A program made the position numbers and the translations under genes. From assembly GCA_964016885.1 (NCBI GenBank), contig OZ024742.1, positions 206,150,001 through 206,214,000 of the forward strand: DNA of 64,000 nt. The letters are read 5' to 3'. The notes under the pieces are model-generated. The model saw nothing but the letters and a program-made list of their open reading frames with translations, did not search any database and had not been told where the DNA came from. How positions within the stretch are numbered: position 1 is the first letter of the stretch; each line of letters opens with the position of its first letter. Below are positions 54,700 through 64,000 of this stretch, in pieces. Source of the DNA: Eledone cirrhosa (lineage: Eukaryota).

Positions 54700-57600
54700 T
54701 ACACACACTACACACACACATACACAAACATGCACACACATATACCAACATGGACATACACTAAACATACACATGCACACACCCATTGCACACAAACACA
54801 CAACACACATACAACTCACATACATACACACTACACACATAAATGTACAGAACACACTACACACACATACATACATTAGCACAAGACACACTACACACAC
54901 ACGCATAGACAACTTACATGAGACTCACACTACACATACACAACACACACAACACACACACTACCTACACAACACACACTACCTACACAACACACACACT
55001 ACTTACGCAACACACACTACATACACAACACACACACTACCTACAGCAAACACACACTACCTACACAACACACACACTAACTACACAGGACACACACTAC
55101 CTACACAACATACACTACCCACACAACACACACTACATACACAACACACACACACTACCTACACAGGACACACACTATCTACACAGGACACACACACTAC
55201 CTACACAACACACACTACCTACACAAGACACACACTACATACACAAGACACACACACTACCTACGCAACACACAGTACCTACAGAACACACACACTACCA
55301 AAACAACACACACACTACCTACAAAATACACACACTACCTACACAACACACACTACCTACACAACACACACACACACTACGTACACAAGACACACACTAA
55401 ATACACAGGACACACACTACCTACACAACACACACTACCTCCACAGGACACACATTACCTACACAATACACATACTACCTACACAAAACACACACACTAC
55501 CTACACAACACACACACTACCTACACAAGACACACCCTACCTACACAACACACACTATCTACATAACACACACGACCTACACAACACACACACTACTTAC
55601 ACAACACACACACTACCTACACAACACACACTACCTACACAAGACACACAATGCCTCCCCAACACACACACTACACAACACAACACACACACTACCTCCA
55701 CAACACACACTACCTACACAAACACACTACTTAACAACACACACACTACCTACAGAGGACACACCCTACCTACACAACACACACACTACCTACAGAACAC
55801 ACACTACCTACACAAGACACACACTACCTATACATCACACACACTATCTACACAAGACACACACTACCTACACAACATGCACGCTACTTACACAACACAC
55901 ACACTACGTACATAACACCCACACTACCTACACAAAACACACACTACCTACACAAGACACACACTACATACACAACACACACACTACCTACACAACACAC
56001 ACTACCTACACAAGACACATGCTACCTACACAAGACACTCACTACCCACACAAGACACACACTACCTACACAACACACACACTACCTACACAACACGCAC
56101 ACTAACTATACAACACACACACTAACTATACATCACACACACTATCTACACAAGATACACACTACCTACACAACACACACACTACCTACAGAGGACACAC
56201 CCTACCTACACAACACACACACTACCTACAGAACACACACTACCTACACAAGACACACACTACCTATACATCACACACACTATCTACACAAGACACACAC
56301 TACCTACACAACATGCACGCTACTTACACAACACACACACTACGTACATAACACCCACACTACCTACACAAAACACACACTACCTACACAAGACACACAC
56401 TACATACACAACACACACACTACCTACACAACACACACTACCTACACAAGACACACGCTACCTACACAAGACACTCACTACCCACACAAGACACACACTA
56501 CCTACACAACACACACACTGCCTACACAACACACACTCTACCTACACAACATGCACACTAGCTACACAACGCACACTACCTACACAACACACACACTACC
56601 TACACAACACACACACTGCCTACACAAAACATAGTACGTACACAACACACACACTACCTACACAGGACACACACTACCTACACAACACACACACTACCTA
56701 CACAAGACACACACTACCTACACAACACACACTACCTACACAACACCTACTACCTACACAACACACGCACTACCTTCACAACACACAGTACCTACTCAAC
56801 ACACATACTACCAACACAAGTCACACACTATCTACACAAAACATACACTGCCTACACAACACACACACTACCTACACAACACACACACTATCTACACATC
56901 ACATAGTACCTACACAACACACAAACTACCTACACAAAACACACACTACCTACACAACACACATTCCTACACAAAACACACACTACCTACACAATACGCA
57001 CACTACCTACACAAAACATAGTACGTACACAACACACACACTACCTACACAAAACACACACTAACTACACAACACACTCTACATACACAAGACACACTAC
57101 CTACACAACACACACTACCTACAAAATACACACTACCTACACAACGCACACACTGCCTACAAAACACACACACTACCTACACAACACACACACTACGTAC
57201 ACAACACACACACTACCTACACAACATACACTACCTACACAACACACACACTACCTAGACAAGACACACACTACCTACACAGGACATACACTACCTACAC
57301 AACACACAGTACCTACACAACACCTACTACCTACACAACACACACAATACCTACCCAACACACACACTACCTACACAACACACAGTACCTACACAACACA
57401 CACAATACCTACCCAACACACACACTAACCACACAGGACACACACTACCTACACAACACACACTACCTCCACAGGAAACACACTACCTACACAATACACA
57501 CACTACCTACACAAAACATACACACTACCTACACAGGACACACACTACCTACACAAGACACACACACTACCTACACAACACACACACACTACCTACACAA

Positions 57601-58562
57601 CACACACTCTACCAACACAACAGACACTACCTACACAACACAAACTCCCTATGCAAGACACACAGTACCTACACAACACAAACACTACCTACACAACACA
57701 CACAACCTACACAACACACAATACCTACACAAGACACACACTACCTACACAACACACACTACCTACACAACACACACACACTACCTACACAACACACACA
57801 CACTACCTACACAACACACACACTACCTACACAACACAGACACTACCTACACAACATACACACTACCTACACAACAAACATACTACCTACACAACACAAT
57901 ACTTACACAAGACACACACACTACCTACACAACACACACACACTACCTACACAACACACACACTACCTACACAAGACACACACTACCTACACAACACACA
58001 CTATCTACACAACACACAGCCTACCTACACAACACGCACACTACCTACACAACACACACACTACCTACACAACACACACTATCTACACAACACACACACT
58101 ACCTACACAACACACACTATCTACACAACACACACGACCTACACAACACACACACTACCTACACAACACACACACTATCTACACAACACACACACTACCT
58201 ACACAACACACACACTACATTCACAACACACACACTACCTACACAACACACACACTACCTACACAACACACACTACCTACACATCACACACACTATCTAC
58301 ACAACACACACTATCTACACAACACACACACTACTTACACAACACACACTATCTACACAACACACACACTACTTACACAACACACACTACCTACACAACA
58401 CATACTACCTACACAACACACACACTACCTACACATCACACACACTACCTACACAACACACACTATCTACACACCACACACACTACCTACACAACACACA
58501 CACTACCTACACAACACACACACTACCTACACAACACACACACTACCTACCCACACAACACA
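54700..58562. repeat. CA-rich minisatellite, unit CTACCTACACAA(CA)3-5 (~18-22 bp)
   Basis: Direct observation; ~3.9 kb, G-poor on the plus strand. Confidence 0.95.
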
Positions 58563-58608
58563 TGTAGCATTTTCGGTCCTAACCATTGACTTCATTTCAG
58601 TATTATTA

Positions 58609-58960
58609 TTGGCAGTATCGGTAGAGGGTCGGGCGCCATGCTTAGATGCATAGAGTTTCGGCCCTTGCCATTCTGAGTCACTTTGCCTTTCATCCTTACG
58701 GGGTCGATAAAATAAAGTATCAGTAATACACTGGGTAATTGCTGGCCTTGTGCCAAATGTAGAAACAATTATTGGCAGTATCTGTAGAGGGCCGGACGTC
58801 ATGCTCTGCAGCAAAGAGTTACGGCCCTTTATGGTCTGAGTTCAAATCCCGCCAAGGTTAACTTTGCCTTTCATCCTTACGGGGTCGATAAAATAAAGTA
58901 CCAGTAATGTACTGGGTATTTGCTGGCCTTGTGTCAAAAGTAGAAAAAATTATTATTATT
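58609..58960 (+). mobile_element. Two tandem Deu/Nin-type SINEs
   Basis: Consensus matches, with tattatt at the junctions. Confidence 0.85.
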
Positions 58961-59251
58961 ATCATTTATATATATATGTGTGTGTGTGTGTGTATGTGTA
59001 GCAATATCCGTATGTGTGAAAAGAAAACAGGAAACTATGCCCATTCGAGAAAAAGCAGAAATATTATATTATTTTTTTATGTTCATACACTGCACAAAGG
59101 CTCTACTCAAGGTGTCAAGACTCAAATTTGATCATACCTCCAGAAAACCAGAGGCATCAAAATAGTGACCTTTCTACAGTCGCTTTTATTTCTATGTATT
59201 AGTGCCTGAAAAACTTCACCAGATTTTTGATGAACCAACTTTCTTCAACTG

Positions 59252-59340
<89 letters not shown>

Positions 59341-59346
<6 letters not shown>

Positions 59347-60034
59347 TTGGTGCTCTGAAATAGCGATACATACATGAATGTATGTATAGTATATTTGGCA
59401 ATACACCGTATGTTTAATTAAAAACATTTTGAAGACCATACGCTATCGGTTTAAAGTAGTGACTATGTCACTTACTTCATTTTGGCGAAAGAAGGGAGTG
59501 AAGCAAACAGTCTGTTTCACGCTGTTTGGCGATCATCAGAGCCATGTACTCCCTCTCCCGCCGAAAATTATAGAAGCTGGATTCTTATAGAATTCCAGTA
59601 ATAATCAGGAGCCGAAAAGAAGTAAGTGATATAGTCACTACTTTAATACCGATAGCGTATGTTCTTCAAAAGGTTTTTAATTACACATACGGTATATTGC
59701 CAAATATACTATACATACATTCATGTATACATCGCTATTTCAGAGCACCAATCCTAATACCTAATTTTTGCTGGACCGGCAATCGCTCTGTATAATCAGC
59801 TCCTGATTATTAACGGAATTCTATAAGAATCAAGCTTGGAGAATTTTCGGCGGAAGAGGGTGTGTGTGGCTCTGATGATCGCCAAACAGCGTGAACCAGA
59901 CTGTTAGCTTCTCTCCCTTCTTTCGCCGAAAAGAAGTAAATGACATAGTCTACTTTAAACCGATAGTGTATGGTCTTAAAAAATGTTTTAAATTAAACAT
60001 ACGGTATATTGCCAAATATACTATACATACATTC

Positions 60035-60036
<2 letters not shown>
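59341..60036. mobile_element. Candidate non-LTR retrozyme locus A: ~314-bp hammerhead unit; partial minus copy, inversion at ~59612, then ~1.35 plus copies; in (TA)n
   Basis: gccgaaaagaagtaa recurs at 59611 and 59925; hammerheads at 59503-59542 (-) and 59869-59908 (+). Confidence 0.8.
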
Positions 60037-60068
<32 letters not shown>

Positions 60069-60110
60069 TAAGTCATGTCCCTAGAATTATTAGATAAAAT
60101 ATATATATAT

Positions 60111-60461
60111 ACAGAAATATCCACGGTTAGTTGTGGGGTCTAGTCCGCATGAAGAACTCAATGTAATCCATATGTTGAAAATGTTGTAGGTTAAAATAAA
60201 TCCCGGAAAACAATAAAATATCAAAAGAAAAACAGAGTCATGATATAAGTTAAAACAATGAAATAAAAAATCAAGTCATTAGAAATATAATTCCCTGCTT
60301 TACGATCGTTTCTAGGTGATAATAGTACATCGTACGCATATTTCGTTATCGATCTATGTATGGTTAGTTACAAAATATCAGATAAGGAATATATTTACCT
60401 ACATGTATATCATCAGCCGTTCTAATGACTTGATTTTTTATTTCATTGTTTTAACTTATAT
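60111..60461 (-). mobile_element. Penelope-like terminal fragment with 42-bp inverted end (60243-60284 / 60420-60461) and long-helix-II hammerhead remnant (60301-60416)
   Basis: Minus: CTGATGA...TAGGT(...)ACCTA-GAAA-CGATCG-TA; TTGAGTTCT motif downstream; TA flanks. Confidence 0.55.
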
Positions 60462-61980
60462 ATATATATATAAGTTAAAAAAATGAAATAATATATATAT
60501 ATATAAACTAAGGTCAGAATCAGTTCTGTATGAGCAAGACATGATCACCTGACCTAGCATTGCCCACAACAGGACAACTCGTCTAACCCAGTCTGGTGTG
60601 GAAGAATGGAAGTAAAACGGTGATGATGATGATGATGATATATATATATTCAATTTTCTCAATTTCAATCTAGCTAGCACTATTCAGAGTATTATATACT
60701 TTCTACTAGTAAAATATAGGCAAAGTTTGGACTGAAGGTAAAATGAATTTTTGCTTTCAGTTAATAAGTAATGAAGTAGATTTGCAAGACTAGTTAACCA
60801 ATAGCAACAGAAAACATTACATATCTTAAATCTAAAATGTATTTCATGAGTCATGTGTGTGAATAGTTAAAATGGAAGGTAATGTATGGAATATATATTT
60901 TTTCTTCTCTTATTTAGATGAATATCATCAGAGGAATACATTAAAGTGCACAATAGGGATTTTACTTGTCTTGAAAAGGGACAACAGAAACTTACTTGTT
61001 GTAACCTGCTGTTTGTTGCTGCCTGCTGTTAAAAGACTTTATGAATTCTTAAAAAATGAAGTTGCACCTGCATAAATAGAGTTTTTTTTCACATGTAATG
61101 TATTGGAGTTATGTTAAAGGAATGTGTAAACAAGAGCATGATTTTGTCACATGGAATATTAATGAAAACAGCAAGAAAAAATATGCTGAAACTTGAAACA
61201 AAACTAGTATCATCAAAGTTGTATGTTGTTTACCTGTTTTTACTGACAAAACAGGATCTGGGGTTAGAGAGGGTAGAGGAGGAAAAAGAATGATTTAGAA
61301 AAGGAAAGTAAAGGATAAAGGTTAGTGAGAAATAGAATGATAGAGTGAGAAAATGTAAGAAGGTCAAAACTAAGTAAGATGAATGTTGAATATAGACATG
61401 ATGTTGAAGGTGGAGAAAAATAAAATACAACAGCTGCTATCATGAATATGCAATTGGCAAAGAATGATCTTATTTCTGTATAAAAGAACAATGGTTTGGT
61501 CAACTTTGAAGTAAGTTGTAGCAATGAATAGACTGTGATATTTCGTGTTTTACTAGAATATTCAAATACAAAATTAGCGACATTTCAAGTGGACTTAAAA
61601 ATGTTAAAATTAAAGAATGCAGCATGCTTTCTCAACGAGGTTTCATTTTCTGTTTTGCTCAGCTTTCGTGAATGTTTTAGAAATTATTCATTTTTCTTTT
61701 AATATTTTCTTTAAATGTGACATTAAGCTAAGAGGCCCTAACTAAAAATGAAAGCTGATACCAAACATGTAAAGCTTCCTTTTCCTGTCCTTTTAAGTTC
61801 TAATTAGACTCTTTGGTAAAACACTTTTGGAAATCTGTTTATTGAACAGTTCAAATTTCTGTTTGTCATTTGATACAGCTTTTTACCATAATGGTCAAAT
61901 AAAAAGACTGAGGTCTTATTTTATTTTGTTATATACCTTTTAATTATATCTATCAACTATATATATATATATATATATAT

Positions 61981-62987
61981 GAATATATGTATAGTATATT
62001 TGGCAATATACTGTATACTTAATTAAAAAACATTTTGAAGACCTTACGCTATTATTTTAAAGTAGTGACTATGTCACTTACTTCTTTTTTCAACAAACAA
62101 AGGGAGATAAGCTGACAGATCTGTTTCACACTGTTGCTGATCATCAGAGCTTAGCACTCACCAACTTTTGTTGAAAATTATAGAGGCTGGATTCTTATAG
62201 AATTCCAGTAATAATCAGGAACTGATTATACAGACCGATTGCCGGTCCAGCAAAAATTGAAAATTAGGATTGGTGCTCTGAAATAGCGATGTATACATGA
62301 ATATATGCATAGTATATTTGGCAATATACTGTATGCTTAATTAAAAACATTTTGAAGACCTTGCGCTATTATTTTAAAGTAGTGACTATGTCACTTACTT
62401 CTTTTTTCAACAAACGAAGGGAGATAAGCAGACAGATCTGTTTCACACTGTTGGTGATCATCAGAACTTAGCACACGCTGACCTTTGTTGAAAATTATAG
62501 AGGCTGGATTCTTATAGAATTCCAGTAATAATCAGGAACTGATTATACAGAGCGATTGCCGGTCCAACGCAAGGTCTTCAAAATGTTTTTAATTAAGCAT
62601 ACAGTATATTGCCAAATATACTATACATATATTCATGTATACATCGCTATTTCAGAGCACCAATCTTAATTTTCAATTTTTGCTGGACCAGCAATCGGTC
62701 TGTATAATCAGTTCCTGATTATTACTGGAATTCTATCTGAATCCAGCCTCTATAATTTTCAACAAAGGTCGGCGAGTGCTAAGCTCTGATGATCAGCAAC
62801 AGTGTGAAACAGATCTGTCAGCTTATCTCCCTTTGTTTGTTGAAAAAAGAAGTAAGTGACAGAGTCACTACTTTAAAATAATAGCGCAAGGTCTTCAACA
62901 TTTTTTTAATTAAGCATACAGTATATTGCCAAATATACTATACATATATTCATGTATACATCGCTATTTCAGAGCACCAATCCTAAT
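61981..62987. mobile_element. Candidate non-LTR retrozyme locus B: 317-318-bp unit; ~1.85 minus copies, inversion at ~62567, ~1.3 plus copies; in (TA)n
   Basis: Unit starts at 61981/62299 (minus block) and 62568/62885 (plus block); hammerheads at 62108-62153 (-), 62425-62470 (-) and 62780-62825 (+). Confidence 0.85.
62756..62846 (+). ncRNA. Type I hammerhead ribozyme with extended helix I, GUC site (cleavage predicted 3' of 62819)
   Basis: TTTTCAACAAA..TAAGCT-CTGATGA-tCA(gcaacag)TGt-GAAA-CAG(at)CTG-TC-AGCTTA..TTTGTTGAAAA. Confidence 0.85.
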
Positions 62988-63020
62988 ATATATATATATG
63001 TGTGTGATTCATAAGATGTC

Positions 63021-63400
63021 TTCTACAGGACTAGAACTGTTTCATTTGTAGGAAATCATCAGGACATACCTGATGATTTCATATGAATGAGACAGTTCTG
63101 GTCCTGTAGAATCCATTTCTATATTAAATAATTGTTTCTACTTTAGGCACAAGGCCAGCAATTACCCAGTACATTACTGGTACTTTATTTTATCGACCCC
63201 GTAAGGATGAAAGGCAAAGTTAACCTCGGCGGGATTTGAACTCAAACCGTAAAGGGACATAACTATGCTAGAAAGCATGGCGTCTAACCCTCTACCGATA
63301 CTGCCAATTCACCGCCCTCTATATTAAATAATGATGTCTATACTCTACTAATGCATTGAGTACCTTTTTAACTGTGGTTGCCCTTGATTTAACTTGGGAT
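63021..63400. mobile_element. Fold-back Penelope-like end (palindrome 63021-63111 with CTGATGA...GAAACAG remnants; tail with TTGAGTAC), interrupted by a SINE
   Basis: 43-bp arms around acata; tail resumes after the SINE TSD. Confidence 0.6.
63133..63317 (-). mobile_element. Deu/Nin-type SINE with 15-bp TSD tctatattaaataat
   Basis: TSD at 63118-63132 / 63318-63332. Confidence 0.9.
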
Positions 63401-63678: not shown

Positions 63679-63727
63679 CTTGTTACTCTGGAGTTTCCCC
63701 TGTGTACTCACAGGATCATCAGACAAG
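63679..63727 (-). ncRNA. Type I hammerhead ribozyme, GUA site, within palindrome 63671-63778 (damaged mirror copy 63729-63770)
   Basis: Minus: CTTGT-CTGATGA-TCCTGTG(agta)CACAGGG-GAAA-CTC(ca)GAG-TA-ACAAG. Confidence 0.85.
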
Positions 63728-64000
63728 TCTTGTCAGATGACCCTATGAAGTGAAACTCTAGAGTAACAAGACTCATCATGTTCATTGTCATTTTAACGTC
63801 TGCTTTCCCTGTTAGCAAGGGCTGGATGGGTAGACATAGACCAAGTCAATACTGAAATGGAGCCACTGTTCGCCCAGGCAGGGAACTCTGTCTCACTTAT
63901 GTATGGTCAACACTCCACCTAGTGCACAGGAGAGGTTGTCATGTCTTTGAAACAATTGAGGATTCTCCCAACATTTTGTTTTATAAGATTTCTATGGCTG

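Follow-up and report, generated by a model that had tools for sequence, protein, structure and literature searches.

Inverted retrozyme insertions of Eledone cirrhosa pair two fixed ends, which suggests a borrowed Penelope-like enzyme

The two loci and their repeat unit

The stretch of DNA analysed here, referred to as the window, comprises 64,000 nucleotides (nt) of the Eledone cirrhosa genome (GenBank assembly GCA_964016885.1, contig OZ024742.1, positions 206,150,001 to 206,214,000 of the forward strand). It contains two loci of a retrozyme, a short non-coding repeat with a hammerhead ribozyme motif. Both loci are head-to-head pairs of arms made from a unit of about 317 nt and set in (TA)n (Table 1). 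The arms of each locus diverge, so that each outer end is a 3' end of the ribozyme strand. Window positions 62571-62887 are numbered as unit 1-317. Two kinds of outer end are distinguished: site A, the ATTCA/T end (unit 65), found at 60035/6 and 61980/79, and site B, the CTAA/T end (unit 99), found at 59341 and 62986/7. All four abut (TA)n, and the border T matches the unit and the TA run alike, so that the end positions are good to +/-1. Each locus has one A end and one B end. An earlier note on this DNA had described each locus as a minus block joined to a plus block, the outer ends of the two loci coinciding at two unit positions; its coordinates are right to 1 nt, and the two common positions are sites A and B.

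The unit is 317 nt long in locus 2 and 311 nt in locus 1, and an alignment of the two has 258 identities, 52 mismatches and 8 gaps. Its GC content is 35-39% and its longest ATG frame has 41 codons. A tblastn search with nine proteins of Penelope-like elements (PLEs) gave zero matches in the window, and an Rfam scan of the window gave no family at the gathering score. The hammerhead was called from its core, of which 237 arms yielded 125 examples, and a covarying stem II. In that stem, pairs 2-4 are formed in 90-93% of the cores, with C-G/U-A and A-U/G-C swaps (pair 2, C-G 77 and U-A 33; pair 3, A-U 66 and G-C 46; pair 4, C-G 110). Stem III is a short near-palindrome, a form described in the available part of PMC4209133 as needing a dimer for cleavage. 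The predicted cut falls between unit 249 and 250, with A 133 nt and B 167 nt 3' of it, and none of 202 arms ends at unit 244-254; the ends are indeed far from the ribozyme cut, as the note had it. Two or more predicted cut sites are spanned by 29 of the 202 arms, among them the minus arm of locus 2.

A type I hammerhead in a unit of 150-450 bp, at least two consecutive units, absence of coding capacity and a GC content below 45-50% are marks of a retrozyme that lacks long terminal repeats (a non-LTR retrozyme), and the repeat has all of them. The mark of an autonomous endonuclease-bearing (EN+) PLE, an open reading frame with reverse transcriptase (RT) and GIY-YIG domains, is absent from it. 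The 317-nt unit has no apparent LTR, primer-binding site or polypurine tract, although no search aimed at these was run. The family is thus a non-LTR retrozyme that works like a passenger of PLEs, and not an autonomous PLE.

Family, samples and independence of the loci

A 30-nt motif of the unit (unit 144-173) has 1,753 exact matches in the 3.0-Gb genome, and its reversed control has none. Two sets of insertions were assembled. The anchored set consists of 89 insertions on contig 1 that carry this motif, which lies far from both end sites; they come from the first 100 listed matches, 4 of which were not included, and the anchor forces one arm of each to at least 240 nt. The second set consists of 55 insertions picked with BLAST by similarity to the window units and for long arms. 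L034, L044, L056, L002 (same place taken twice) and L010 (a duplicate of L006) were excluded before counting, and complex insertions (5/89 and 7/55) were excluded from the pair counts.

The two window loci are independent insertions. They are 80-84% identical and belong to different subfamilies, their flanks show no similarity in four of four comparisons, and closer relatives of each, at 94% and 96%, lie elsewhere in the genome. The identity, subfamily and flank comparisons rule out a local duplication, which the earlier note had named as one of two findings that would refute its reading.

Three contig sets of one outside sample, perhaps the assembly's own, have TA loose ends at both end sites (53, 53 and 48 at 62263; 21 in X1 and 13 in X3 at 62641). 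A check of these three sets for an empty site or polymorphism found no piece across the locus.

Fixed ends, orientation and pairing

In the anchored set, 116 of 130 outer ends fall into unit 45-75 or 92-111, against 16% under uniformly distributed ends, and 89 of 130 fall into the narrow windows 60-68 and 97-103, against 5%; the widths of the windows were chosen after inspection of the data, their centres having been given by the earlier note. The mode is unit 64 for site A (41/103) and unit 98 for site B (42/79), the A end being blurred over 45-75 by TA-like sequence upstream. The same end pattern is seen in the second set. A TA repeat of at least 8 nt immediately follows 124 of 182 A or B ends, as expected if (TA)n is the target. 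Of the 132 outer ends of 66 inverted loci, 89 continue directly as (TA)n, which would mask any target-site duplication. The mapping proposed in the earlier note therefore yields what it had predicted, two sharp end peaks with inversion points scattered over the unit, and its supposition of two preferred AU-rich sites stands as far as the two sharp sites go. The sites are not drawn at will, however: they lie 34 nt apart, bound a 34-nt tail and are usually paired one of each.

The 89 anchored insertions comprise 46 simple head-to-head pairs, 38 single arms and 5 complex insertions; none is tail-to-tail. This supports priming from both sides of a break. Ten of the 46 pairs have one end elsewhere and cannot be classified. 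The remaining 36 comprise 28 with one A and one B end (AB), 7 AA and 1 BB, where 17.5 AB would be expected (p=0.0004). With the narrow windows 17 of 19 are AB (p=0.0007), and a Fisher test of anchored arm against partner gives p=0.005. The second set, with 17 classifiable pairs of 20, gives AB 14, AA 2 and BB 1.

The same combination is known from PLEs. Their insertions are described, in the accessible parts of PMC8557442 and PMC3846280, as carrying an inverted 5'-truncated copy, with a tail of 30-40 bp often at one end only, and as biased to microsatellites. The PLE protein of the anole cleaves the two strands of AT-rich DNA and extends each of them, using two internal RNA start sites which bound the tail, one of them in a stem-loop (PMC11167929). 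The retrozyme insertions share the head-to-head inverted 5'-truncated copy, a 34-nt tail that is often one-sided, and a microsatellite or AT-rich target. The bounds of the tail together with the one-of-each pairing point to the RT/GIY-YIG machinery of PLEs, which the earlier note had not named; by analogy, this Penelope footprint suggests that a borrowed PLE enzyme acts as the inserter.

Single-strand folds of both subfamilies place site A in a hairpin loop within a multi-stem junction (z-scores -1.6 and -2.1). A fold of the alignment of 69 natural copies retains two hairpins only and has no compensatory change, so the structure around the two start sites is to be read as a prediction.

The complex insertions L024, L035, L046, L127 and L028 contain several same-strand jumps, some of which restart near unit 64-82, as if from template switching during synthesis.

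Inversion junctions and kinship of the arms

The inversion points of the 68 junctions studied are spread over the unit, and the arms overlap by at least 80 nt of unit sequence in 55 of the 68 loci. For 5 of the 68 loci (8.8 expected) the 5' ends of the two arms are no more than 20 nt apart, so that the junction has no hairpin. An overlap of at least 2 nt is present at 28 of 68 junctions, against 25% of 397 simulated ones (p=0.003), a modest enrichment showing that microhomology helps joining in a minority of cases. The earlier note had joined both window loci by microhomology. At locus 1 the GC at 59611-12 fits both arms, as it had said. At locus 2 both arms do predict AGC at 62566-68, but AAC is observed, which is not a clean overlap; it is either an overlap of 3 nt that has since been altered once, or an insert of 1 nt. 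As a general rule, joining by microhomology has to be confined to the enriched minority.

Eight pairs of junctions within 5 nt of each other occur among the 68, with about 5.5 expected. L108 and L109, 17 kb apart on contig 1, have the same junction (unit 20/52) with the A and B ends swapped; their sequences and flanks differ, so that they are independent insertions. L093 and L130 have a common TTAAAA junction. Such repeated junctions are possible microhomology hot spots.

Both arms belong to the same subfamily in all 56 typable loci of the 68, and in 34 of 34 of the anchored set (22 and 12 per subfamily). The two arms of a locus diverge by a median of 6.1% from each other and by 14.8% from other loci (55 loci). 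They share rare alleles at 1.18% of sites, compared with 0.18% between loci of one subfamily, a 6.7-fold difference, and 16 of 49 loci exceed 1% shared rare alleles, against 2.5% of 1500 random pairs. Two readings of one RNA require an RT that spares its template. The RTs of PLEs are not known to have an RNase H.

The template

The 5' ends of the retrozyme arms show no stop at the cut: 5 of 202 lie at unit 247-253, with 4.5 expected, none of 29 unanchored arms that reach the cut stops there, and 175 of 202 arms cross it. The best 8-nt window of 5' ends, at an A/T-rich stretch, holds 15 of 198 against a simulated mean of 11.8 (p=0.04). Units within a locus diverge by 6.7% in the same phase, 7.3% across phases and 6.5% within an arm (23 loci, p=0.47), and those of window locus 2 are likewise equidistant (8/7/7). 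No array longer than 1.1 kb was found among the best 40 of 5243 candidates, and single arms have no common 5' flank. L098 and L137 showed hints of a two-unit periodicity at a few sites, which was not borne out (the differing unit being the middle one 46 times, the first 65 and the last 57).

Circular RNA has been demonstrated for retrozymes of coral, mussel and axolotl (PMC7229834, accessible part). The circular template supposed in the earlier note is compatible with the present results and is favoured by the absence of a 5' stop, but crossing of the cut fits an uncut linear RNA as well; for this retrozyme the case for a circle is a little better than even.

Penelope-like elements of the genome

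The genome contains PLEs with RT and GIY-YIG domains; the 40 GIY-YIG loci, out of 10,597 candidates, represent four or more protein families. Their nuclease is preceded by a Cys-x-Cys-x-x-Cys motif which, by the description of this motif in the available part of PMC8557442, suggests elements of the Neptune or Nematis type. Separate retrozyme copies lie near three of the 40 loci.

One family, represented by L174 and L177, has RT and GIY-YIG domains, 5,645 exact motif matches and (TA)n flanks. Its hammerhead has a U-U first pair, similar to that of the retrozyme, and its ends lie near +125 and +170-192 from the hammerhead cut. With the near and far ends taken as A and B, 19 classifiable pairs of 24 comprise AB 14, BB 5 and AA 0 (p=0.02). 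Of the 42 PLE loci, 18 were chosen for being pairs; six duplicate loci and L219, which gave no alignment, were excluded. Its 5' ends are concentrated, 36 of 65 within one 8-nt window 68-75 nt upstream of the cut, and this stop lies about 30 nt after a TATA-like motif, as judged by eye. So sharp a 5' stop is expected for run-off from a linear RNA, and the retrozyme has no such stop. The family is a parallel to the retrozyme, not its proven partner.

At L177 an autonomous-type PLE is inserted as a 3-kb head-to-head palindrome, with the near end on one arm and the far end on the other. The loci L191-L238 of the same family include many short near-palindromes whose two arms begin at one and the same point, 72 nt upstream of the cut, one arm running to the near site and the other to the far site. 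The common start is likely to be the transcription start, and the short near-palindromes possibly derive from a self-standing transcript of the 3' terminal repeat.

Proposed mechanism and its alternatives

The reading adopted here, which is judged probable, is that, at a cut in (TA)n, a borrowed PLE RT/GIY-YIG enzyme primed the copying of one RNA, probably circular, from either end. Judging from the anole protein (PMC11167929) and the genome's own PLE family, the enzyme would cut both strands in (TA)n, and reverse transcription would start at A, in the hairpin loop, and at B, 34 nt further 3', one start for each DNA end. Both complementary DNAs (cDNAs) would be copied from one RNA or one source lineage. 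Each would run a variable distance 5'-ward through the ribozyme site and stop at random, and the cDNA 3' ends would then be united by end-joining, with short microhomology in a minority of cases. The least certain step is the template itself, which would be a cut-to-cut monomer closed into a circle and thus have no 5' end to run off. A more specific proposal is put forward tentatively: a PLE dimer sitting on one small circular ribozyme RNA might prime the two ends of the (TA)n break at sites 34 nt apart, both enzymes rolling around the circle, the rear one displacing the cDNA of the front one, and the products being joined head to head. If this is true, the tail and the inverted copy of PLEs arise in one event, of which the A/B pairing is the genomic record.

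Several observations weigh against two-sided priming on one circular RNA. Nine AA and two BB insertions occur among 66, and single arms have A and B ends about equally (16/18 and 18/9), compared with 2/16 in the PLE family. None of the 40 GIY-YIG loci among the 10,597 candidates is a PLE with the retrozyme unit as its terminal repeat. Gaps are present at 26 of 68 junctions (39% of the simulated ones). There is no excess of shared alleles in 33 of 49 loci, and the rare alleles of window locus 1 comprise 20 unshared and none shared; arms of one subfamily could reflect subfamilies active at different times, and shared rare alleles could stem from later gene conversion between the arms. As to the ribozyme, its core was matched in only 125 of the 208 copies that span the motif, and pair 10.1-11.1 (stem II pair 1) departs from the usual G-C, with U-U in 57 and A-U in 54 of these cores. 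PLE hammerheads, moreover, cleave poorly, and uncut RNA was the main template in vitro (PMC11167929 and the available part of PMC4209133), so that crossing of the cut site fits uncut linear RNA too. At sites with three copies, rare alleles common to all three were counted 8 times, 6 of them in a single locus, and those present in two of the three 26 times. Rare transversions of locus 2 (unit 128 and 226) are present in the outer units of both arms and not in the inner one, a pattern not expected from a monomer circle. Later tandem duplication seems to have produced some of the long arms, neighbouring units differing by 0.9% in L241 and 1.0% in L013, with L240 and L242 of the same kind; a length above one unit is therefore no proof of rolling by itself.

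The alternative that survives best, unlikely as it is, keeps two-sided priming by a PLE enzyme and replaces the circle by an uncut linear multimer or a read-through transcript, the long arms being in part later tandem duplications. It draws on the uncut template preferred by the anole PLE in vitro (PMC11167929), on the atypical and often decayed hammerheads, on the phase-specific shared alleles of locus 2 and on the duplications in L240, L241, L242 and L013. It does not account for the absence of a 5' stop at a start site or the cut site, no long source array (best 40 of 5243 candidates) and no carried-over flanks were found, neither an overall phase effect nor a two-unit periodicity is seen, and stem II covaries.

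Two RNA-protein particles, each priming one DNA end on its own RNA, would also yield head-to-head arms that overlap in unit position. The concept has been described for L1 (PMC2837659, in its accessible part), and the PLE protein is a predicted dimer that extends both strands and uses the same start sites on either strand (PMC11167929). Independent draws, however, give no excess of AB pairs unless the two active sites differ, and none of 56 loci has arms of mixed subfamily, while rare alleles are shared 6.7-fold more often within loci than between them. This explanation is improbable.

More doubtful still is a snap-back of one cDNA, which would fold back through microhomology, copy itself and then undergo trimming or endonuclease resolution at the second site. 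It would account for arms of the same source and for the A/B asymmetry; self-priming and resolution by the endonuclease have been proposed for PLEs in the available parts of PMC3846280 and PMC8557442, and in 13 of 14 AB loci of the second set, picked for long arms, one arm is contained in the other. This containment, which snap-back demands, fails in 20 of 28 anchored AB loci, and the scarcity of nearby 5' ends leaves no hairpin at the junction. It fails by arm length in both window loci too (425/272 and 586/419 nt), for which snap-back is contradicted unless a longer intermediate is assumed. Finally, a local duplication, a DNA-level rearrangement or an assembly artefact is hardly credible: the loci are 2 kb apart and inverted repeats in (TA)n are hard to assemble, but beyond the comparisons given above the arms within a locus differ by 3-10%, and the same layout is found, with differing junctions, at 46 of 89 loci.

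Relation to known systems

The family resembles the metazoan non-LTR retrozymes (PMC7229834, accessible part; bioRxiv 10.64898/2026.07.22.740005) in its GC-poor non-coding unit of about 300 bp, its type I hammerhead, and its short tandem and dispersed copies in thousands per genome. Mobilisation of those retrozymes by PLEs through circular RNA has been proposed in the same two papers. The arms described here differ from retrozymes as published in being mostly shorter than two units and inverted. Insertion ends, inverted arms and a tail are not mapped in the available part of PMC7229834, where the words 'inverted' and 'microsatellite' do not occur, nor in the main text of the bioRxiv paper. No published end mapping, A/B pairing or arm-kinship count for retrozymes was found, although supplements may bear on it. 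Li, Clavereau and Pollet (2026; bioRxiv 10.64898/2026.07.22.740005) argued for a PLE origin of animal retrozymes from co-occurrence and kinship of the pseudo-LTR (pLTR) in vertebrates, and called the mechanism of mobilisation open.

With EN+ PLEs (PMC3846280 and PMC8557442, available parts; PMC11167929) the retrozyme shares the head-to-head inverted copy, the tail at one end and the microsatellite target, and with the anole element (PMC11167929) a hammerhead upstream of the start sites and one start site in a stem-loop, here a predicted one. Unlike EN+ PLEs it has no RT/GIY-YIG gene, its unit repeats itself and there is no 5' stop at a start site; no homology was found between its unit and a PLE terminal repeat at the 40 GIY-YIG loci. 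The EN+ PLE papers, in the parts available, give the one-sided tail in words and contain no A/B or arm-kinship count. Twin or dual priming of L1 (PMC2837659, accessible part) is similar in that both DNA ends prime cDNA and the arms are joined with little or no microhomology. In L1 twin priming, however, a variable internal match serves as the second site, and the arms stay clear of each other and leave an internal deletion, whereas the retrozyme has both sites fixed and arms that cover the same sequence. Twin priming of the L1 type is at odds with the fixed outer ends and with the extent of arm overlap given above.

The ingredients are each known, and the value of the family lies in a test system and quantitative handle on PLE priming, not in a new kind of element. 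The origin of the inverted copies and one-sided tails of PLEs has been called unresolved (PMC11167929 and the available part of PMC8557442), and the use of PLE enzymes by retrozymes has so far been based on co-occurrence and sequence kinship (bioRxiv 10.64898/2026.07.22.740005). A short element with more than 1,700 copies leaves marks that can be counted: one A and one B end, arms of one lineage and no 5' stop. From these marks one would predict that synthesis starts at unit 65 and at unit 99, with one site for each strand, and that a circle is ligated between unit 249 and 250.

Other features of the window

Table 1. Features of the two retrozyme loci in window coordinates
Feature	Position	Strand	Unit positions or remark
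(TA)n target run, left of locus 1	59256..59340		
Minus arm of locus 1 (subfamily 1), length 272 nt; tail present, with B as the 3' end and unit 143 as the 5' end	59341..59612	-	unit 143 to 99
34-nt tail between A and B, locus 1	59341..59374	-	compare PMC11167929
Type I hammerhead motif of locus 1 with some mismatches in stem I; GUU, cut predicted next to 59506	59500..59545	-	
Locus 1 inversion junction, 2-nt microhomology GC matching both arms	59611..59612		
Plus arm of locus 1, 425 nt or 1.4 units of 311 nt; A as the 3' end, no tail	59611..60035	+	unit 272 to 65 of next repeat
Locus 1 hammerhead motif with altered core (GAAC for GAAA), predicted cut after 59905	59866..59911	+	
(TA)n run, right of locus 1	60038..60066		
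(TA)n run, left of locus 2	61958..61979		
Minus arm of locus 2 (subfamily 2), about 586 nt or 1.85 units of 317 nt; A as the 3' end	61980..62566	-	unit 114 to 65 two repeats on; two hammerheads
Locus 2 hammerhead motif, GUC, predicted cut next to 62114, palindromic AGATCT in stem III	62108..62153	-	
Second hammerhead motif of locus 2 minus arm, predicted cut next to 62431, stem I with two changes	62425..62470	-	
Locus 2 inversion junction; AGC predicted by both arms, AAC observed	62566..62568		
Plus arm of locus 2, about 419 nt; B as the 3' end	62568..62986	+	unit 315 to 99
Locus 2 hammerhead motif, GUC, predicted cut after 62819	62780..62825	+	
Predicted multi-stem junction, two hairpins; A in loop of second hairpin	62880..62969	+	fold prediction; z -1.6 and -2.1
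34-nt tail between A and B, locus 2	62953..62986	+	
(TA)n run, right of locus 2	62987..62999		

Further hammerhead-like families are present in the window. A head-to-head pair of a different hammerhead-like motif adjoins locus 2 at 63016-63115, and the same motif family occurs near the PLE loci L171, L176, L178 and L182. A third family forms a compact head-to-head pair at 63680-63769. The fourth, a head-to-head pair at 1431-1688, has a TA-palindromic stem III, and a similar motif is found in L183.

A minisatellite of 3.6 kb occupies 54927-58561, with a 20-nt unit in about 186 copies. A dispersed repeat, possibly a short interspersed element (SINE), occurs three times, twice in direct and once in inverted orientation, at 58605-58963 and 63127-63264.

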